Assembly: GCA_965207225.1 (NCBI GenBank)
Contig: CBDBLV010000005.1
Location: forward strand, 1,248,001-1,312,000
DNA: 64,000 nucleotides
Source: Dehalococcoidia bacterium
GTDB taxonomy: Bacteria; Chloroflexota; Dehalococcoidia; Plut-88900
Direction: 5' to 3'
Every line of letters starts with the position of its first letter. Within the stretch, counting starts at the first letter, position 1. The notes under the pieces were generated by a model. The model saw nothing but the letters and a program-made list of their open reading frames with translations. It was not told the DNA's origin and did not search any database. The translations under genes were made by a program, and so were the position numbers. Positions 20,129 through 33,142 of this stretch are shown here, piece by piece.

Positions 20129-21517
20129 CTAGTTCCCCACGCTCTGGAGGTAGCCCAGCCAGAGGTCGTTCCACTCGCTGTTCTTTTCTCCGCTGTACTT
20201 CTCGTTCTCGAAGATGGCGTAGGGCACGTTGGCGGGCGATACCGGCAGTGCGGGAAGCACGTGCTCAAACTCGGGGCCCGTGAGGTATTCCGCGGACTTC
20301 AGGTTCAGAGGTCCGTAGGAGATGTACTTCGACTGCTCTGCGTTGATCTGCGGATGTCCCGTCCAGGCAACCCACAGCTGCGCAATCTCAAACGCCTCGG
20401 GGTTGGCCTCTTTGAAACCGTTTGCAAATACCAGCGCTCCCGTACCGACCAGGTGTCCGCACTCCCAGCAGATGCCGAGGGGCTCGCCCTCCTGCTGGGC
20501 GTTGAAGATCCGGCCGTTCCAGGCCGTGCACATCACATTGTCACCCGAAATCAGGAACTGCGGGCAGTCCGATCCCGTCGTCCAGAAGTTGTCCGGAGGG
20601 AAGGCGCTCCAGTGCGCCAGTGCCGCCTGTACGTCTTCATCCGTCGGCGCACCCAGGGCAGTCCTGCCTTCTTGCGTTTCCAGTCTGCTCGGGTCGAGGT
20701 CCAGGAGGGCCGAGAACCAGCTGCCTCTGTAGGAGTCTCTCACGCTCCGCGGGCCAGGGTAGCTGTCCCTGTCGAAGAAAGCATCCCAGCCTGTGATCTC
20801 TCCCTCTGGGAATGCGTCGGTGTTGTAGGCCAGCACCGTGGACCAGGTGATTCCACCGCCGCCGCCGTAGCGGGTACGAACGGTCTCTACGTGGTTCCGG
20901 TTGTCAACCACGGTCATGTCGAGCTCTTCCAGGTTGCCAAGTCCGATCTGCGCCCACAGTTCGCGGCCGCCCACGTCCATTACGTGCCAGCTGAAGTTGC
21001 CCGTCTCCACCATCGCCGGAATCCTGGCGTAGGACATCGGGCTCTCTTCAACTATCTCGATTCCGAACTTCGCCACGAACGGCTCGATGTAAGCCTGTCG
21101 CTGGGCAGCCTGGTACGCGCCGCCCCAGGAGGTGAACACGAAGCTGGCGCCGCGGTACTTCTCTATCTCCGCTTCCAGCTCCTCGAAAGTAGCCGGGTTC
21201 TCTTCCGTCCACTCGGACCGGGGCCTTAGGCCCGTGCCGGTGTCATCGTCGTCTTCCATCGCTTCCGGAGTTGCCGTGGGTTCCGGCATTGCATCATCCG
21301 GCTCATCCGGCATCGCCGTCGGCTCCATCGCGTCATCCGGCTCGTCCGGCATTGCCGTCGGCTCCGGCATCGCGGTGGGCTCCTCCATGGCCTCTGGCGT
21401 CGCCGTTGCCGCTTCGCCGCAGGCCGCGAGGACCATTAGTGCTACTAGAAGAATGCTCAGCCCGGCGAAGATGCCTCGCCTGGAGAGCTTTCCTCTCCTC
21501 ATTCCTTTCTCTCTCAT
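20129..21517 (-). CDS. PotD/PotF-like extracellular solute-binding lipoprotein, paralog 1
   Basis: SWGGAYQAAQ, WSTVLAYN and AWNGR; lipobox LAAC; acidic EPTAMP/DEPDDAM linker. Confidence 0.9.
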   Translation of the reverse strand: MREKGMRRGKLSRRGIFAGLSILLVALMVLAACGEAATATPEAMEEPTAMPEPTAMPDEPDDAMEPTAMPDEPDDAMPEPTATPEAMEDDDDTGTGLRPRSEWTEENPATFEELEAEIEKYRGASFVFTSWGGAYQAAQRQAYIEPFVAKFGIEIVEESPMSYARIPAMVETGNFSWHVMDVGGRELWAQIGLGNLEELDMTVVDNRNHVETVRTRYGGGGGITWSTVLAYNTDAFPEGEITGWDAFFDRDSYPGPRSVRDSYRGSWFSALLDLDPSRLETQEGRTALGAPTDEDVQAALAHWSAFPPDNFWTTGSDCPQFLISGDNVMCTAWNGRIFNAQQEGEPLGICWECGHLVGTGALVFANGFKEANPEAFEIAQLWVAWTGHPQINAEQSKYISYGPLNLKSAEYLTGPEFEHVLPALPVSPANVPYAIFENEKYSGEKNSEWNDLWLGYLQSVGN

Positions 21518-21983: not shown

Positions 21984-23369
21984 CTAGTTCGCTGCCAATC
22001 CCTGCTGGTATTCCAGCCACAGCTCGGTCCACTCGGGGTTCTTCTCTCCGCTGTACAGCTCATTCTCAATAATCGAATACGGCGCATTATCCGGTGAAGT
22101 CGGCAGGGCTGGCCGTACTGCGTCGAATTCCGAACCACCTTGGAACTCAGCTGACCTCAGGTTCAGAGCGCCATAGGTGATGTACCTGGAGATGTTGGCG
22201 TTAATCTCCGGCAGTCCCGTCCAGGCAATGAACAACTGTCCGAGGTCAAAGGCCTCGGGGTTCGATTCATCCAGGCCCTTGGCCATAACAAAAGCGCCTG
22301 TGCCGATGAGGTGTCCGCACTCCCAGCAGATCGCCAGGGGCTCACCCTCTATCTGGGCGTTGTATATCCTGCCGTTCCACGCCGTGCACATGTCGTAGTC
22401 GCCCGAGATTAGCGTCTGCGGGCAGTCCGACCCGGTGTGCCAGAAACCGTCTGGGGGACTGGCTTCCCAGAGCGCTAGCGCTTCCTGGACGTCCTCGTCC
22501 GTTGGGGCGCCAAGTCGTGCTCTCCATTCGGCGTTTTCCAGCCTGCTGTGATCGTTCGCCAGCAGCGCCGAGAACCAGCTGCCTCTGTAAGCGTCCCTAA
22601 CGCTTCGTCTCCCGGGGAAATTCTCCCGGTCGAAGAAGTCGCCCCACGTAGTGATGCTTCCCTCGGGGTATACGTCCGAGTTGTACGCCAGTACCGTGGA
22701 CCAGGTGATTCCGCCGCCGCCGCCGTATGGCGTGCTCACAGTCTCAACGTGGTTCCGGTTGTCCACTACGCTGAGGTCTAGCTCCGCCAGCGCATCAATG
22801 TTGATGTGGTTCCAGAGCTCCCGGCCGCCTACGTCCATTACGTGCCACTTGTAGTTGCCCGTGTCTACCATTACGCGTATCACCGCGTACTCCATCGGGC
22901 TCTCTTCCACGACCTCGATTCCGAACTGACTGGAGAACGGCTCTATGTAAGCTTGCCGCTGGGCCGCCTGGTAAGCGCCGCCCCAGGAAGTGAACACGAA
23001 GCTCGAACCCCTGTACTTTTCGATCTCGGCTTCCAGTTCTGCCCGGTTCGCCGGGTTCTCTTCCGTCCACTCGGACCTGGGCCTCACGCCCGTATCCGGC
23101 ATCGCTGTCGGCTCAGGCATCGCCGTCGGTTCCATCGCATCGTCCGGTTCGTCCATCGCATCGTCCGGTTCGTCCATCGCGTCATCCGGCTCGTCCGGCA
23201 CCGCCGTCGGCTCCGGCATGGCCGTCGGCTCTTCTTCCATCGCTTCCGGTGTAGCAGTCGCAGCTTCGCCACAAGCGGCTAGCACCATCAGCGCAATCAG
23301 GAGGATGCTCAGCCCAGCAAGGACCCCCCTCCTTTTCGTAAACTTCCTTCTCCTATAACCGTGCGTCAT
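21984..23369 (-). CDS. PotD/PotF-like extracellular solute-binding lipoprotein, paralog 2
   Basis: Clearly paralogous to 20129-21517, with the same motifs and linker. Confidence 0.9.
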   Translation of the reverse strand: MTHGYRRRKFTKRRGVLAGLSILLIALMVLAACGEAATATPEAMEEEPTAMPEPTAVPDEPDDAMDEPDDAMDEPDDAMEPTAMPEPTAMPDTGVRPRSEWTEENPANRAELEAEIEKYRGSSFVFTSWGGAYQAAQRQAYIEPFSSQFGIEVVEESPMEYAVIRVMVDTGNYKWHVMDVGGRELWNHINIDALAELDLSVVDNRNHVETVSTPYGGGGGITWSTVLAYNSDVYPEGSITTWGDFFDRENFPGRRSVRDAYRGSWFSALLANDHSRLENAEWRARLGAPTDEDVQEALALWEASPPDGFWHTGSDCPQTLISGDYDMCTAWNGRIYNAQIEGEPLAICWECGHLIGTGAFVMAKGLDESNPEAFDLGQLFIAWTGLPEINANISRYITYGALNLRSAEFQGGSEFDAVRPALPTSPDNAPYSIIENELYSGEKNPEWTELWLEYQQGLAAN

Positions 23370-23645
23370 TGTGCGTGCTCCTTGCTATTCCTTGGGCCAT
23401 GTCAAATTGTTCGCATTGAAACAGGTCTTCATTGACCTGTCATTGATCGAGTCCGCCAATTGAAAAGACTTACCTCCAAAAGTCCAGCGGTACGGCCGAA
23501 AAATTGAAATTCAACCACAAAGATTAACGGGTAAGCCCCCGACCTGTGTCGATGGGACGGCTTATAAACATATAACGTCGCAGTGTCAGAAATGTTATCT
23601 GCGGCGTTATGCTGCCTTGCGGTTAAACTATTTCCCCAAGGTACC

Positions 23646-23673
23646 ATTCTACTTGCAAGAGGCTTCCTGTCAA
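23646..23673 (-). promoter_or_regulatory. sigma70-type promoter of SBP paralog 2
   Basis: TTGACA-N16-TAGAAT on the - strand. Confidence 0.65.
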
Positions 23674-23755
23674 GTCGGATTTCATTGCCCTGGAATTGCA
23701 CAGCCGGACATGCCCCCCCTGCCTCTGTTCTCCCCTCCCCCCTCTCTCCCATTCC

Positions 23756-24505
23756 GTCATTCCAGACCCCGATCGGGAATCCATCCCTCCTCGGCGGTGG
23801 GGCCGCTCATGCTGAGGCCCTCGAAGTGCGAGCGGTGGGGTGGCCCACGCATCTTCAGCCCCTCACATAACTCCACTGACAACCCACGTCCCTCACTGTC
23901 ATTCCGAACGGCAATGAGGAATCTGGGGAGGGGCGGTGCAGGTCTCCCAACCCACCTCGCCATTCACCGACCCCCCTTCCCATTCCGATGCCCCGCGAGG
24001 AATCTAACGCGCAACTCCCCCAACTCACCTCGTCCATAGCCCTTCACACCCCTCCCATCCCATTTCCCCATCTCCGCCATCCCCGACCTCGATCGGGAAT
24101 CCATCCCCGGCGGTGAGGCCGCTCGTGCTGAGCCCCTCTTAAGCATGCCCCGAGTCCCTCGAGGGGTACGAGCGTGGGGCGGCCCACGCATCTTCAGGCC
24201 CTCGCATACCCCCACTGACAACCCACGCCCCTCACTGTCATTCCGAACGGCAGTGAGGAATCTGGGGAATGGCGGTGCAGGTCCCGCAACTCACCTGACT
24301 CCCCCGTCATTCCCGACCCCAATCAGGAATCCAGAGGTGCGCTGGGAGGCGTCCAGTCCCCTCTCCCTCGACGGGAGAGGGCTAGGGTGAGGGTGATACG
24401 AGTGCCAGGAGACCAGCTATTCAGAGCCCTCTCGAAGGCAGAGGGCTAGATCCTGTCCCAACCCCCCACGCCCCTTTCCCATTCCGATGCCCCGCGAGGA
24501 ATCTC
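23756..24505 (+). repeat. mosaic cluster of REP-like palindromes (BIME-like)
   Basis: Alternating CATTCCGA...GAGGAATCT, CATTCCCGACCCCGATCGGGAATCC, GGCCGCTC...CGAGCGG and CCCTCTCCC..GGGAGAGGG units; ~23835-23955 recurs at ~24173-24293. Confidence 0.85.
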
Positions 24506-24678
24506 CAGCACCCCTCCCTAAACCCACCCCCTGCCTAACCTCGCGCACCCATCCCTGGCATCCCCCTTGGTAAAGACACATCAAAAATGCACCGCATTTT
24601 TGATGTGTCAATAAAACAGGGCGGGCGGGTGGGACTCATATCACTCCCCGGGGGTCGGGGAGGAGCATCCCCCTCCCT

Positions 24679-24821
24679 CCAGTACTGAACTAGGGGCCCA
24701 GGTGCGTGCAGAGCACGCACCTGGGCTTCTGTTCTTCTCTCCCCCTCTCCCTTACAGGCCCTAAGAGCCTGCCCCGAGTCCCTCGAGGGGGAGAGGGGGA
24801 CCAAGGCGGAGAGGGTTCCCC
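24679..24821 (+). repeat. two-hairpin element, copy C (different stem sequence; insertion in hairpin 2)
   Basis: AGGGGCCCAGGTGCGTGC aga GCACGCACCTGGGCTTCT; same flanks as copy A. Confidence 0.85.
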
Positions 24822-24865
24822 AGGGGGCCGGGGAGAAAATCCCCCCAAAATGCTCCCAAAGCCTC

Positions 24866-24893
24866 TTGACATCTGCCATATACGTTCTATACT
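24866..24893 (+). promoter_or_regulatory. sigma70-type promoter upstream of the 60-bp array
   Basis: TTGACA-N16-TATACT, overlapped by three ACGT(T)C direct repeats (24882-24912). Confidence 0.65.
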
Positions 24894-25038
24894 AACGTTC
24901 AGACCTAACGTCTACACCCAAATCTCACAACAAAACACTGTCAAACAGGGGGCCCGCCAGACCGGGCCCCCGACGCCCCCAAAAAGGGGCGCCTGCTCAA
25001 GAGGCGGTTGGTCTGCTGACCCAGCCCGACCCCCTCGC

Positions 25039-25398
25039 GGATGCCCTCGGCCGCAGACCGCGGAAGAACCCCCGTACCCGGGCTGCCTGCCAGGGTGTGG
25101 ATGCCCGCGGCACAACGCCGCGGAAGAGTCCCCGCTCCGCCTCACCGGGCGTAGAAGCGGATGCCTGCGGCACCGGGCCGCGGAAGAGTCCCCGCTCCGC
25201 CTCACCGGGCGTAGAAGCGGATGCCTGCGGCATTGCGCCGCGGAAGAACCCCCGCTCCGCCTTACCGGGCGTAGAAGCGGATGCCTGCGGTGCTGCACCG
25301 CGGAAGAATCCCCGTGCCCGGGCTACCTACCAGGGCACGGATGCCCGCGGCTCCAGGCCGCGGAAGACTTCCCGCCCCGTCGGGCGCGGTAGAAGGCC
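25039..25398 (+). repeat. tandem array of six 60-bp double-hairpin units
   Basis: GGATGCC starts at 25039, 25099, 25159, 25219, 25279 and 25339; each unit contains CCGCGGAAGA. Confidence 0.92.
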
Positions 25399-26305
25399 CA
25401 GGGGCCGACGCCCCAACCGTCGCCGCTCCCTGTCCCATGTCCCCGCCTCCCTGCCCCGGCTGTCCCCCGACAGCCCGGACATCGGAGGCGAAATCGCCCT
25501 CCTCCGCTCGTTGACCAACCGCCTCTTGAGCATGCGTCCCCTCGACTACACCCAGATCAACCGATGCCTCCGACTCATCATCCGCGCTTACTCCGCCCAG
25601 GCCAAGGCCCCCAAACAGCTCACCGACGAAGAGCAAATCGACAACCTCATCAAGAAAGTCTTCCAGGACAACGTAGACAGGGGTGACCTCGACTTCCGCG
25701 ACCTCATCCCCGTCCGCATGGCCCGGCCTGGCGACAAGTGGTGGCCCTGGAGAATGCTCCTCCCCCTGAAGGACCGCTGGCGCTACGGCCTCATCGACCC
25801 CGACGAACCCTGGCCCCAGGAAGAAAACCAAAGGCTCGCGGAGAGCGAGGCCATGCAGAAGTTCATCGCCGAAGCCTACCTCAACCCCGACTTACTCAAA
25901 GGCCTCGACACCGAAGACGAGGACCCAGACCCCGATGACGAAGACGACTATGACCCCGATGATGACAATCCCGACGACGAAGACGACGACTATGACCCAG
26001 ACCCGGACGACGACGAGGCCCCACCCCACCTAACCGTCATTCCCGACCCCGATCGGGAATCCATCCCCGCCCCTCATCCCATTCCGATGCCCCGCGAGGA
26101 ATCTCTCACGCCCATAACTGAATCCACACCCTTACCCGTAGGAGCGTCCTTCGTGGACACCCTCCCCGTCGGCGTGGCCGCTCGTGCTGAGGCCCTCGAA
26201 GCGCGAGCGGCGGTCGGCCCGCATACCACCGACCCGTCACCCCATGACGAAGACCCACCCCCACCTCCCCAACCCCGCATCGCCCGAGGCCGCCCCCCTC
26301 CCTGA
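25097..26305 (+). CDS. hypothetical protein (basic 20-aa repeats, helical core, D/E-rich tract, REP-derived tail); start uncertain
   Basis: Core ~25470-26020 has strong C-ending codon bias like other + strand genes; an in-frame CTG at 25013 follows GAGG. Confidence 0.6.
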   Translation: MDARGTTPRKSPRSASPGVEADACGTGPRKSPRSASPGVEADACGIAPRKNPRSALPGVEADACGAAPRKNPRARATYQGTDARGSRPRKTSRPVGRGRRPRGRRPNRRRSLSHVPASLPRLSPDSPDIGGEIALLRSLTNRLLSMRPLDYTQINRCLRLIIRAYSAQAKAPKQLTDEEQIDNLIKKVFQDNVDRGDLDFRDLIPVRMARPGDKWWPWRMLLPLKDRWRYGLIDPDEPWPQEENQRLAESEAMQKFIAEAYLNPDLLKGLDTEDEDPDPDDEDDYDPDDDNPDDEDDDYDPDPDDDEAPPHLTVIPDPDRESIPAPHPIPMPREESLTPITESTPLPVGASFVDTLPVGVAARAEALEARAAVGPHTTDPSPHDEDPPPPPQPRIARGRPPP

Positions 26306-26464
26306 CCCCCTCCGTCATCCCGAACGCCGCCCATGTCATTCCGAACGGCAGTGAGGAATCTGGGGAGGGGTGGTGCAGGTCTCCCAACTCACCTGGATTT
26401 GCACCCTCCCCGCACGGGCGTCCCTCGTCGGTGCCCCGGGGAAGCGAGGCGCAGGTCTATCAAT

Positions 26465-27865
26465 TCACTCTGCCCCCCACCCCGGCCCCGCATCAATCCC
26501 CAGCCGCCCCGCCCGCGCAGCCACCGACTCGGACACCTTCCTGTACACCTCCCCCTCGTCCACTCGCGTAGAATGCCCATCCTTGAAAACGACCTCCCCG
26601 TTCACCATCACGGTATCGACACTACCAGCCCCCATCGTCAACGTCAGCAGGTGGATCGGATTGTTCGACGGATACGCCTCAGCCGCCCCTGCACTCCTCA
26701 CGACGATATCCGCCCGCTTCCCCGGCTCCAGGCTTCCCAGCTCTGTCTCCATCCCAGCCGCCGCCGCTCCATTGACCGTCTGCATCTCCAGCAACGCTTC
26801 CGGCGACACCGCGTCCGAGTAGCTCTGGCTTGCAAAGTGCCCGGCCAGCATCACGTGCCCCGGCGTACACCCGACCGCACCGTCCGTCCCCAATGCCACG
26901 CGTGTCCCGTTCCGGTACCTCTCCGCCATCTTGAACTTCGCACTCCCCCCGAACCCCAGCGCGAAGAACGCCGCCGGGCACCACACGATTTTGCAGCCAC
27001 TTTCTCTTATAGCGGCTTCCTCTTCATCATCCACCACATTTGCATGAACTATGACCGTGTTCTCGTCCAGTACCCCTAAATCTTGCAAATGAACAATATG
27101 GCTCTTGCCATTGAGCGCCCGGTATATGGGCCCCTCTCCCGGCACGAAACCCGCGTGCAGCTGAAACGGAACGCCGTTGTCTCGGGCGCACGCATGTGCC
27201 GCCTGCAGAAGCTCTGGAGAGGCCGTTCCCGCTCCGTACACGAACACGAAACCGCGCACCGGCGCCTCCGAGTCTTCGTTCCGGTGCAGCTCCGACCCAA
27301 TCAGCGTCATTGCCCGCCCATGATCGATCGGCGCCCGGGCCGCCAGGCTCGGACTCATCAGCGACGGTACCGCATCGAAGCACTCCTGCCTGTCCCAGAG
27401 GTACAGCGGGGCAAAAAGCGCCCTCATCCCCACCCGACTCACCGCCTCCGCTCCGGCCTCCGTCGAGAACAAGGACCCGGGCTCAATGAACATCGTAAAG
27501 CCTGCCCGAAGCATCTCAAGGCTCGCCATTTCCGTAGCGAAAGCTTCATCCTGCTCCGTGACCCCTGCCTTCCACGTCGCAAAATTCACCGAGGATGGGT
27601 TGTGGCTTCGAACATCCCCCACCCCCCGACAGGACGTGTGTACAACATGATTGTGAGCATCAATGAACCCGGGATGAACAATGCCACCCCCGGCATCCAC
27701 AATCTCCCTCGCCTCGAACTCCCCTCCCATTTCTGTATCCGTTCCAACCCCCACTATTCGCCCTCCCGCCACCGCTACCGCTCCGCACCTGTATATCCGC
27801 CTCTCCGAGTCTATTGTCACTATCAACCCATTGCGAATGAGGACGTCACACTTGACCTTTTCCAT
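26465..27865 (-). CDS. amidohydrolase, MtaD/SsnA-like deaminase family
   Basis: PGFIDAHNH, VHAN, ALGTDG and GSLEPGKRADIV. Confidence 0.9.
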   Translation of the reverse strand: MEKVKCDVLIRNGLIVTIDSERRIYRCGAVAVAGGRIVGVGTDTEMGGEFEAREIVDAGGGIVHPGFIDAHNHVVHTSCRGVGDVRSHNPSSVNFATWKAGVTEQDEAFATEMASLEMLRAGFTMFIEPGSLFSTEAGAEAVSRVGMRALFAPLYLWDRQECFDAVPSLMSPSLAARAPIDHGRAMTLIGSELHRNEDSEAPVRGFVFVYGAGTASPELLQAAHACARDNGVPFQLHAGFVPGEGPIYRALNGKSHIVHLQDLGVLDENTVIVHANVVDDEEEAAIRESGCKIVWCPAAFFALGFGGSAKFKMAERYRNGTRVALGTDGAVGCTPGHVMLAGHFASQSYSDAVSPEALLEMQTVNGAAAAGMETELGSLEPGKRADIVVRSAGAAEAYPSNNPIHLLTLTMGAGSVDTVMVNGEVVFKDGHSTRVDEGEVYRKVSESVAARAGRLGIDAGPGWGAE

Positions 27866-33067: not shown

Positions 33068-33142
33068 TGGTGAGCCGTGTGGGATTCGAACCCACGACAC
33101 CCGGATTAAAAGTCCGGTGCTCTTCCGCTGAGCTAACGGCTC
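33068..33142 (-). tRNA. tRNA-Lys(TTT)
   Basis: Reverse complement GAGCCGT...CCGGA CTTTTAA TCCGG...GTTCGAATC...ACGGCTCA-CCA; cloverleaf, TTT anticodon, encoded CCA. Confidence 0.97.

Follow-up and report, generated by a model that had tools for sequence, protein, structure and literature searches.

The gene analyzed here lies in a window of 64,000 nt, by which we mean the whole stretch of DNA under analysis. It is one copy of a multi-copy family in the genome of a sponge-associated Dehalococcoidia bacterium (4.03 Mb, five contigs, 92.3% complete). Its features, with positions counted along the window, are listed in Table 1. The promoter is the only promoter-like site within 24500-26500, a region in which shuffled sequences contain 0.1 such sites on average, and a TTGAC...TAtACT block is conserved in position and sequence upstream of family members. 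The initial annotation had described this promoter together with two small hairpins, and both are present, the hairpins folding at the positions given in Table 1. Leader hairpin 1 is kept in the main subfamily, while the other subfamilies have a 33-nt in-frame gap in its place; at the position of leader hairpin 2, relatives retain a hairpin in which the loop or the partner sequence differs.

Table 1. Positions of the features of the family gene, and of the tRNA gene, in the window
Feature	Position	Strand	Description
Sigma-70-type promoter	24866-24893	+	TTGACA-N16-TATACT; 11 of 12 positions matched
Reading frame of the family gene (frame A)	24908-26305	+	465 codons plus TGA; leader, array, basic linker, helical core and acidic tail
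Start-codon position of the family	24908-24910	+	ACG in the window copy; ATG in 38 of 39 anchored members
A/C-rich stretch	24911-24947	+	Predicted unpaired; encodes the conserved N-terminus (MSTPKxHNKxLS in relatives)
Leader hairpin 1	24948-24971	+	9-bp stem GGGGGCCCG/CGGGCCCCC; 6-nt loop
Leader hairpin 2	24974-24991	+	CGCCCC/GGGGCG; 6-nt loop
Array of six 60-bp units	25040-25399	+	20 codons each; exact 60-bp period; units start at 25040, 25100, 25160, 25220, 25280 and 25340
Basic linker	25400-25471	+	Reads, together with the last unit, RPVGRGRRPRGRRPNRRRSL...SLPRLSPD
All-helical core domain (predicted)	25472-25900	+	143 aa; conserved; pN/pS 0.41
Acidic tail	25901-26302	+	Asp/Pro-rich, low complexity; in-frame indels between copies; conserved C-terminus PRIARGRPPP
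tRNA gene	33071-33142	-	Only Rfam match at gathering score in the window

The window copy has every part that defines family 1 (promoter, ATG and leader; an array in frame A; a basic linker; a helical core with EIxLLRS...KWWPWR; and an acidic tail) except for the ATG, which is replaced by ACG. Four of the five close copies in the window's genome carry an ATG at the equivalent position and in frame, and beyond the ACG the remainder of the 465-codon frame of the window copy is intact. Four sequencing runs compared with this copy gave only contig pieces of 46-129 nt, for which no alternative letters were reported. The ACG copy may represent a recent silencing event, a non-canonical start or an assembly error.

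The gene is embedded in a ~2.7-kb island of short interspersed repeats (23700-24850 and 26000-26430). The island repeats include 'CATTCCGA...GGAATC' elements and, at 24691-24731, a terminator-like hairpin of 19 bp that has a T-run; for the segment 24700-24750, BLAST found up to ~78 matches in other parts of the genome. On the minus strand, two tandem paralogous genes (20129-21517 and 21984-23369), which are ~75% identical at the DNA level, code for proteins of ~461 aa that resemble solute-binding proteins and have a lipoprotein-like N-terminus as well as a repeat rich in Pro, Glu and Asp (PDDAMDE).

Each of the six units encodes the peptide D-A-[C/R/L]-G-x-x-P-R-K-x-x-R followed by eight variable codons, and each has two hairpins. 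In hairpin 1, positions 6-12 pair with 18-24 around a 5-nt loop; in hairpin 2, an outer stem pairs 33-37 with 57-61 and an inner stem pairs 39-42 with 49-52. Tandem Repeats Finder reported a period of 60 at 25099-25314 (3.6 copies, 90% matches) and a period of 120 at 25057-25379, and a repeat search found a 96-nt block five times from 25039 onward at spacings of 60, 60, 60 and 60, which covers all six units. The six loops (cgcag, acaac, accgg, attgc, gctgc and tccag) are all different; hairpin 1 is closed by a C-G pair in units 2, 3, 4 and 6 and by T-A in unit 5, and unit 1 has C.A at this position. Thus, every feature of the array reported by the initial annotation (period, loops and closing pairs) was found in the sequence. 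Every hairpin has an invariant GGA on its 3' side, located at the foot of the stem such that both G's belong to the stem, and this GGA forms part of GGAUG or GGAAG tails. Compared with dinucleotide shuffles, the segment 24900-25420 folds better on both strands (z of -4.44 for the plus strand and -3.53 for the minus strand).

We found that the ~1.5-kb unit corresponding to 24811-26322 is present in five copies of 89-94% identity in the window's genome, and that the family occupies 11 loci there in total. Searching 61 related genomes with the 143-aa core gave 42 places in nine genomes; all eight other genomes of the same genus were matched, while none of the 52 genomes outside the genus was, including three from other genera of the same family. 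Individual genomes contain between 1 and 12 family copies, and the core tree comprises subfamilies common to several genomes as well as recent duplicates. Members have 2 to 7 units, and the number is 6 in one and 7 in another member although their cores are identical, arguing that the number of units changes fast. In a large protein collection, 92 relatives were identified, none of which has a name or a Pfam domain. A scan of species genomes gave matches only in Dehalococcoidia bacterium MAGs, and sponge metagenomes are among the 21 DNA sequencing runs listed as containing the stretch.

Frame A is the frame of the 402-aa ORF in the window's ORF list, and in each of the five close copies it stays open between a point 33 nt past the -35 box and the TGA at 26303-26305. 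Using the conserved N-terminus as an anchor, we could align 39 of the 42 members, the exceptions being L011, L027 and L041. In all 39, frame A is free of stops from the start to the core and the length of the N-terminal part is divisible by three, whereas stops interrupt frame B in 34 and frame C in 35 of these members. An ATG lies ~14 nt past the conserved -10 box in all anchored members but one, the exception being the window copy. The initial annotation had regarded the orphan protein as adjacent to the array. Rather, the array sits inside the frame of that protein: when only the array is considered, all 41 of 41 members have an open frame A, and the counts for the remaining frames are 11 and 6 members on the plus strand and 6, 14 and 18 on the minus strand. 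We also considered a conserved overlapping gene in another frame or on the other strand and rejected it, as no alternative frame is open in more than 18 of the 41 members. In L011 (G005:C1:414256-417678), an interspersed element located between the leader and the array brings in a stop codon; the N-terminus of this copy is lost and six perfect units are kept.

Between the array and the core, there is no conserved start codon. The linker has a pN/pS of 0.36 and an excess of variable sites at third positions (6/6/11 by codon position), indicating that it evolves as a coding sequence. Among nine members with six units, the core has a pS of 0.214, a pN of 0.088 and variable sites at 34/25/60 by codon position, while the array has a pS of 0.092, a pN of 0.078, a pN/pS of 0.85 and variable sites at 21/31/28. 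Because this pattern of substitutions in the array is not coding-like, we infer its translation from the conservation of the frame and of the start codon. On these grounds, the array is probably a translated tandem repeat of 20 amino acids at the start of a genus-specific orphan gene.

An AlphaFold2 model based on 33 aligned sequences has no secondary structure in residues 1-185 (pLDDT 35-46), a helical core (pLDDT 65-79) and a disordered acidic tail; folded alone, the core reached a pLDDT of 69 and a pTM of 0.34. The repeat peptide is predicted to be disordered and is weakly constrained. Foldseek found nothing in the PDB for the core model at E values up to 0.001, searches of Pfam, NCBIfam and PHROG to an E value of 1 gave no match for the family protein, and in the ESM Atlas only unnamed Chloroflexota clusters were recovered, at 0.90-0.91. 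The acidic tail contains an in-frame copy of an interspersed repeat at ~26060-26110. A 26-nt stretch of this palindromic element, at 26080-26105, recurs in the non-coding segment 24480-24505 and reads HPIPMPREES in the frame of the tail; other gene copies have different interspersed elements in frame at the equivalent position. These in-frame elements resemble the in-frame palindromic insertions of Rickettsia.

In the units, the constraint on the nucleotides exceeds that on the encoded protein. In 161 units from nine genomes, the motif codons are fixed or nearly so, and they differ from those in the cores of the same genes: Asp is GAT in 160 of 160 units (GAC in 77% of cases in the cores), Pro is CCG in 155 of 155 (CCC in 86%), Arg is CGG in 143 of 144 (CGG in 15%) and Lys is AAG in 140 of 140 (AAG in 72%). 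Among codons for the same amino acid, third-position agreement is 0.970 for the motif compared with 0.738 for the core, based on 669 between-genome member pairs; within one genome, gene conversion among paralogs, which acts on the 5' module, can imitate such constraint. The non-motif codons of the same units have diverged freely. Against synonymously recoded sequences, the minimum free energy of the array gave z values of -2.5 to -5.5 in eight of eight members, while that of the core gave values of -0.4 to +1.0. Two of the invariant synonymous sites, the T of GAT and the G of AAG, are unpaired, and pairing does not account for them. Altogether, the constraint on the nucleotides of the stems and of the GGAUG/GGAAG tails goes far past the demands of the amino acids.

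For the analysis of covariation, we used 79 distinct units with 500 shuffles, and as a further control the pairing partners were slid by 1-3 columns. Paired cells amount to 92.3% compared with 86.1% after shuffling, and the covariation score is 0.220 compared with 0.123 (in both cases, 0 of 500 shuffles was as high), although the units are related by duplication and these counts are, therefore, not independent events; in the slid controls, 28-57% of cells are paired. The pair 36-58, which connects the synonymous third position of an Arg codon with the first position of an Ala or Thr codon 22 nt away, is CG in 59, UA in 18 and UG in 2 of the 79 units and is never unpaired. Pair 40-51 changes from G-C to A-U (six units) via G.U (four units), and pair 12-18 is C-G in 57, U-A in 10 and U.G in 2 units and unpaired in 10. 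Wobble evidence on the strand is mixed. The U.G at pair 7-23, present in 79 of the 161 units, favors the plus strand, i.e. the mRNA, because the minus strand would have an unpaired A.C there; however, pair 12-18 has 30 C.A cells, which are pairable on the minus strand.

Hairpin 2 varies in sequence and register while its structure is kept. In a subfamily with two units, the cores of which are 34-63% identical to that of the window copy, the two-hairpin layout is unchanged, with outer stems of CCGAGG...CCUCGG versus CCGGGG...CCCCGG and three different inner stems. It appears, therefore, that selection on the mRNA itself maintains the two hairpins of each unit. The suggestion of the initial annotation that selection acts on nucleotides and structure and not only on the peptide is, accordingly, borne out by three lines of evidence: fixed atypical codons, covariation above the controls, and a loss of folding upon recoding in the array that is not seen in the core.

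The promoter, leader and array together are referred to here as the 5' module. Within genomes, 5' modules that are 93-97% identical are found on paralogous cores that are only 53-54% identical at the DNA level, as in L042 versus L034 (G008) and in C5:941k versus C5:673k and C5:487k of the window's genome (G000), arguing for recombination or conversion confined to the 5' part. With a covariance model of the unit, strong matches were confined to this genus, and 42 of the 49 matches in the window's genome fall within the 11 family loci. Outside the genus, 37 genomes had 1-4 weak matches each (E values of 2e-7 to 1e-3); we treat these as chance rather than as true arrays, the best six being single, gapped and non-tandem.

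Arrays are also present without a core, at nine loci in four other genomes (L084-L092 in G003, G006, G007 and G008) and at three in the window's genome (C4:63010-63263, C4:589470-589723 and C5:1625497-1625750). These coreless loci have in common a different conserved promoter as well as a hairpin-bearing 5' UTR. The start motif CCCATGAGTCGC is found in 10 of the 12, mostly preceded by AAGGAG; the resulting AAGGAG-N4-ATG is in frame with the array, and the length of the leader, which begins MSRxxLxWPRxxRSVWDRPA, is a multiple of three in 9 of 10. The coreless arrays have 3-5 units, some of them degenerate and one read in another frame, and in an alignment of four loci conservation stops ~35 nt past the array. 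As judged from these comparisons, the 5' module behaves as a cassette, and it is also present without a core.

The initial annotation compared the array with CRISPR, TIGR and CsrB, and the likeness lies in a series of hairpins that has a variable part and follows a promoter, and in the GGA near the hairpins. It also held that the loops are unique, which is correct for the six loops of the window copy but not for the family: among the 25 members with three or more units, the loops are all distinct in only 4 and identical throughout in 2, and the 161 units have 34 loop sequences, of which ACTGC occurs 33 times. CRISPR arrays are non-coding, consist of direct repeats of ~23-50 bp with unique spacers of similar length, and usually lie near cas genes. 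Here, in contrast, the units abut at 60 bp, the variable block is a 5-nt loop plus scattered codons, and the array is part of an open frame in all 41 members. Sponge RNAs of the CsrB/RsmZ type present GGA in hairpin loops and have the partner CsrA/RsmA encoded in the same genome, whereas the GGA described here is at the foot of the stem. Moreover, we found no gene for CsrA (PF02599) in the window's genome, which is 92.3% complete, while the same search found it in 3 of 14 reference genomes used as a control. TIGR-Tas systems combine repeats and paired short spacers with an adjacent Tas protein that has a Nop-type domain; by contrast, Pfam, NCBIfam and PHROG contain nothing that matches the array-bearing ORF at E values up to 1, and the array is coding. 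At the Rfam gathering score, the array had no match and the tRNA was the sole match in the whole window, and at E values up to 10 the region 23400-26500 gave only miRNA rows at chance level; the Rfam comparison proposed by the initial annotation thus connects the array with no Rfam family. No common neighbor recurs beside the 11 copies in the window's genome, where the flanks, read as ORF lists, contain long ORFs that are different at each copy. As the 11 copies lie among unrelated metabolic genes, an operon partner or conserved neighbor was rejected for this genome.

Rickettsia palindromic elements (RPEs) are hairpin-forming repeats that are tolerated in frame, typically in unstructured segments, and represent individual insertions of a mobile element scattered over unrelated genes. 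By contrast, the array described here is tandem and confined to one genus-specific family. The available part of the PARCEL report describes tandem repeats of variable number in multi-copy, genome-shuffled ORFs of unknown function, with a 25-residue amphipathic motif that is often found in membrane proteins, and raises the significance of their palindromy as an open matter (PMC2996958). With PARCEL, as far as it is described there, the array shares a coding tandem repeat with dyad symmetry at the repeat period, which is a likeness in kind and not membership: no Pfam or NCBIfam match (DUF285/TIGR02167) was found to an E value of 1. Compared with the same description, the motif here has 20 residues, is Arg/Pro-rich and is predicted to be disordered, and the array has covarying hairpins and frozen synonymous sites. 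In Borg proteins, according to the available part of that report, tandem repeats within ORFs come in multiples of three, add disordered segments, change rapidly in copy number, and are recently formed and rapidly evolving (PMC9879509); in contrast to the repeats portrayed there, the stems and the motif of the units analyzed here are conserved across nine genomes and several subfamilies. A palindromic coding repeat is, therefore, of a known kind (PARCEL and RPE), and the array is not a member of those families. What would be new is that the hairpins themselves appear to be maintained and that the module of promoter, leader and array appears to move as a unit.

We favor the interpretation, with a probability of roughly 0.6, that the array is an N-terminal protein repeat with palindromic DNA and that the mRNA hairpins, two per 60-nt unit, act in cis. 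According to this model, the conserved promoter at 24866 would drive the synthesis of an mRNA with a very short leader; given that the family ATG is 14 nt past the -10 box, the transcript would have almost no 5' UTR. Translation would pass through an unstructured A/C-rich start and then a chain of hairpins, two in the leader and twelve in the array, after which the Arg-rich linker, the helical core and the acidic tail would be translated. We propose that the hairpins would function in cis on the plus-strand mRNA as a module for stability and/or for throttling of ribosomes, and that the invariant single-stranded GGAWG tails are a likely candidate for a protein-binding site. Alternatively, the array could be only a protein repeat, with the dyad symmetry being the relic of a palindromic selfish element that was inserted in frame and amplified. 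In that case, the uniformity of the units would derive from concerted evolution, and the hairpins would have no function. Gene conversion, however, cannot keep third positions at 0.970 across nine genomes with the core at 0.738, and the variable codons of the same units diverged freely; likewise, compensation through a G.U intermediate and alternative stems with a conserved geometry are not expected of a decaying relic. In support of a relic, palindromic coding repeats are documented in the part of the PARCEL report cited above (PMC2996958), the genome is rich in interspersed palindromic repeats, one of which lies in frame in the tail of the ORF, 5' modules are homogenized between paralogs, and the number of units changes fast, with 6 versus 7 on identical cores. 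Altogether, we consider a functionless relic unlikely, if still deserving of attention.

A role of the palindromes at the level of DNA, as hairpins, cruciforms or inverted-repeat binding sites for a recombination that would shuffle the 5' cassette between genes or vary the number of units, could account for the presence of the same 5' module on unrelated cores and on no core, as well as for the 1-12 copies per genome and the 2-7 units per member. It is also consistent with the folding of the minus strand (z of -3.53) and the 30 C.A cells at pair 12-18. Yet the 11 copies have no recombinase or conserved neighbor beside them, hairpin 2 varies in sequence and register in a manner unlike a site for a sequence-specific protein, and the U.G of pair 7-23, present in 79 of 161 units, would not pair on the opposite strand; we regard such a role as decidedly improbable. 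The least probable of the interpretations, for which we see very little chance, is the promoter-driven non-coding array proposed by the initial annotation, i.e. a guide, decoy or sponge RNA processed into pieces of 30 or 60 nt, with the protein made from an internal start. While the substitutions in the array are not coding-like (pN/pS of 0.85), arrays without a core exist and the GGA after every hairpin is invariant, this proposal conflicts with the open frame of all 41 members and its conserved start codon in 38 of 39, with the AAGGAG-N4-ATG of the second family, which is in frame with the array, and with the lack of a conserved start between array and core. In addition, the loops are mostly not distinct (all distinct in 4 of 25 members), and no Rfam match, CsrA gene or nearby partner gene was found.

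A more far-reaching possibility is a dual use of the cassette, with the structured RNA and its encoded peptide working together: the hairpins of the mRNA would be bound by the peptide made from it, through either its Arg-rich repeats or its RGRRPRGRRPNRRR linker, resulting in autoregulation or in an RNA-protein particle. We put this forward as speculation and think it improbable. If correct, each unit would consist of a pair of hairpins with a GGAWG tail and one Arg/Pro-rich peptide repeat. This arrangement would account for a near-identical module on different cores or on none, and also for a frozen RNA, a weakly constrained peptide and invariant synonymous sites that are unpaired. It would then represent a new class of translated structured RNA, so far in one sponge-associated Dehalococcoidia genus.

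Regardless of this possibility, the array points to two overlapping codes in nine genomes and several paralogous subfamilies, a translated repeat and synonymous sites that would be frozen by the structure of the RNA (or of a single strand). The locus also illustrates that hairpin repeats with variable loops located behind a promoter can belong to the interior of a gene, which calls for caution in hunting for arrays. Moreover, the analysis defines an unnamed multi-copy gene family together with a 5' cassette that undergoes recombination, both from an uncultivated lineage associated with sponges.

Four proteins of 586-911 aa (P0127, P0130, P0143 and P0146) gave weak matches to the family profile, with E values of 1.5e-8 to 9e-4. 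They correspond to phrog_14065 and have a repeat of 20 residues, approximately V-E-T-D-x-A-x-x-x-x-R-R-K-x-R-x-x-x-x-A, in which the period and the D...RK..R spacing are as in the array peptide. This likeness may reflect homology or convergence.
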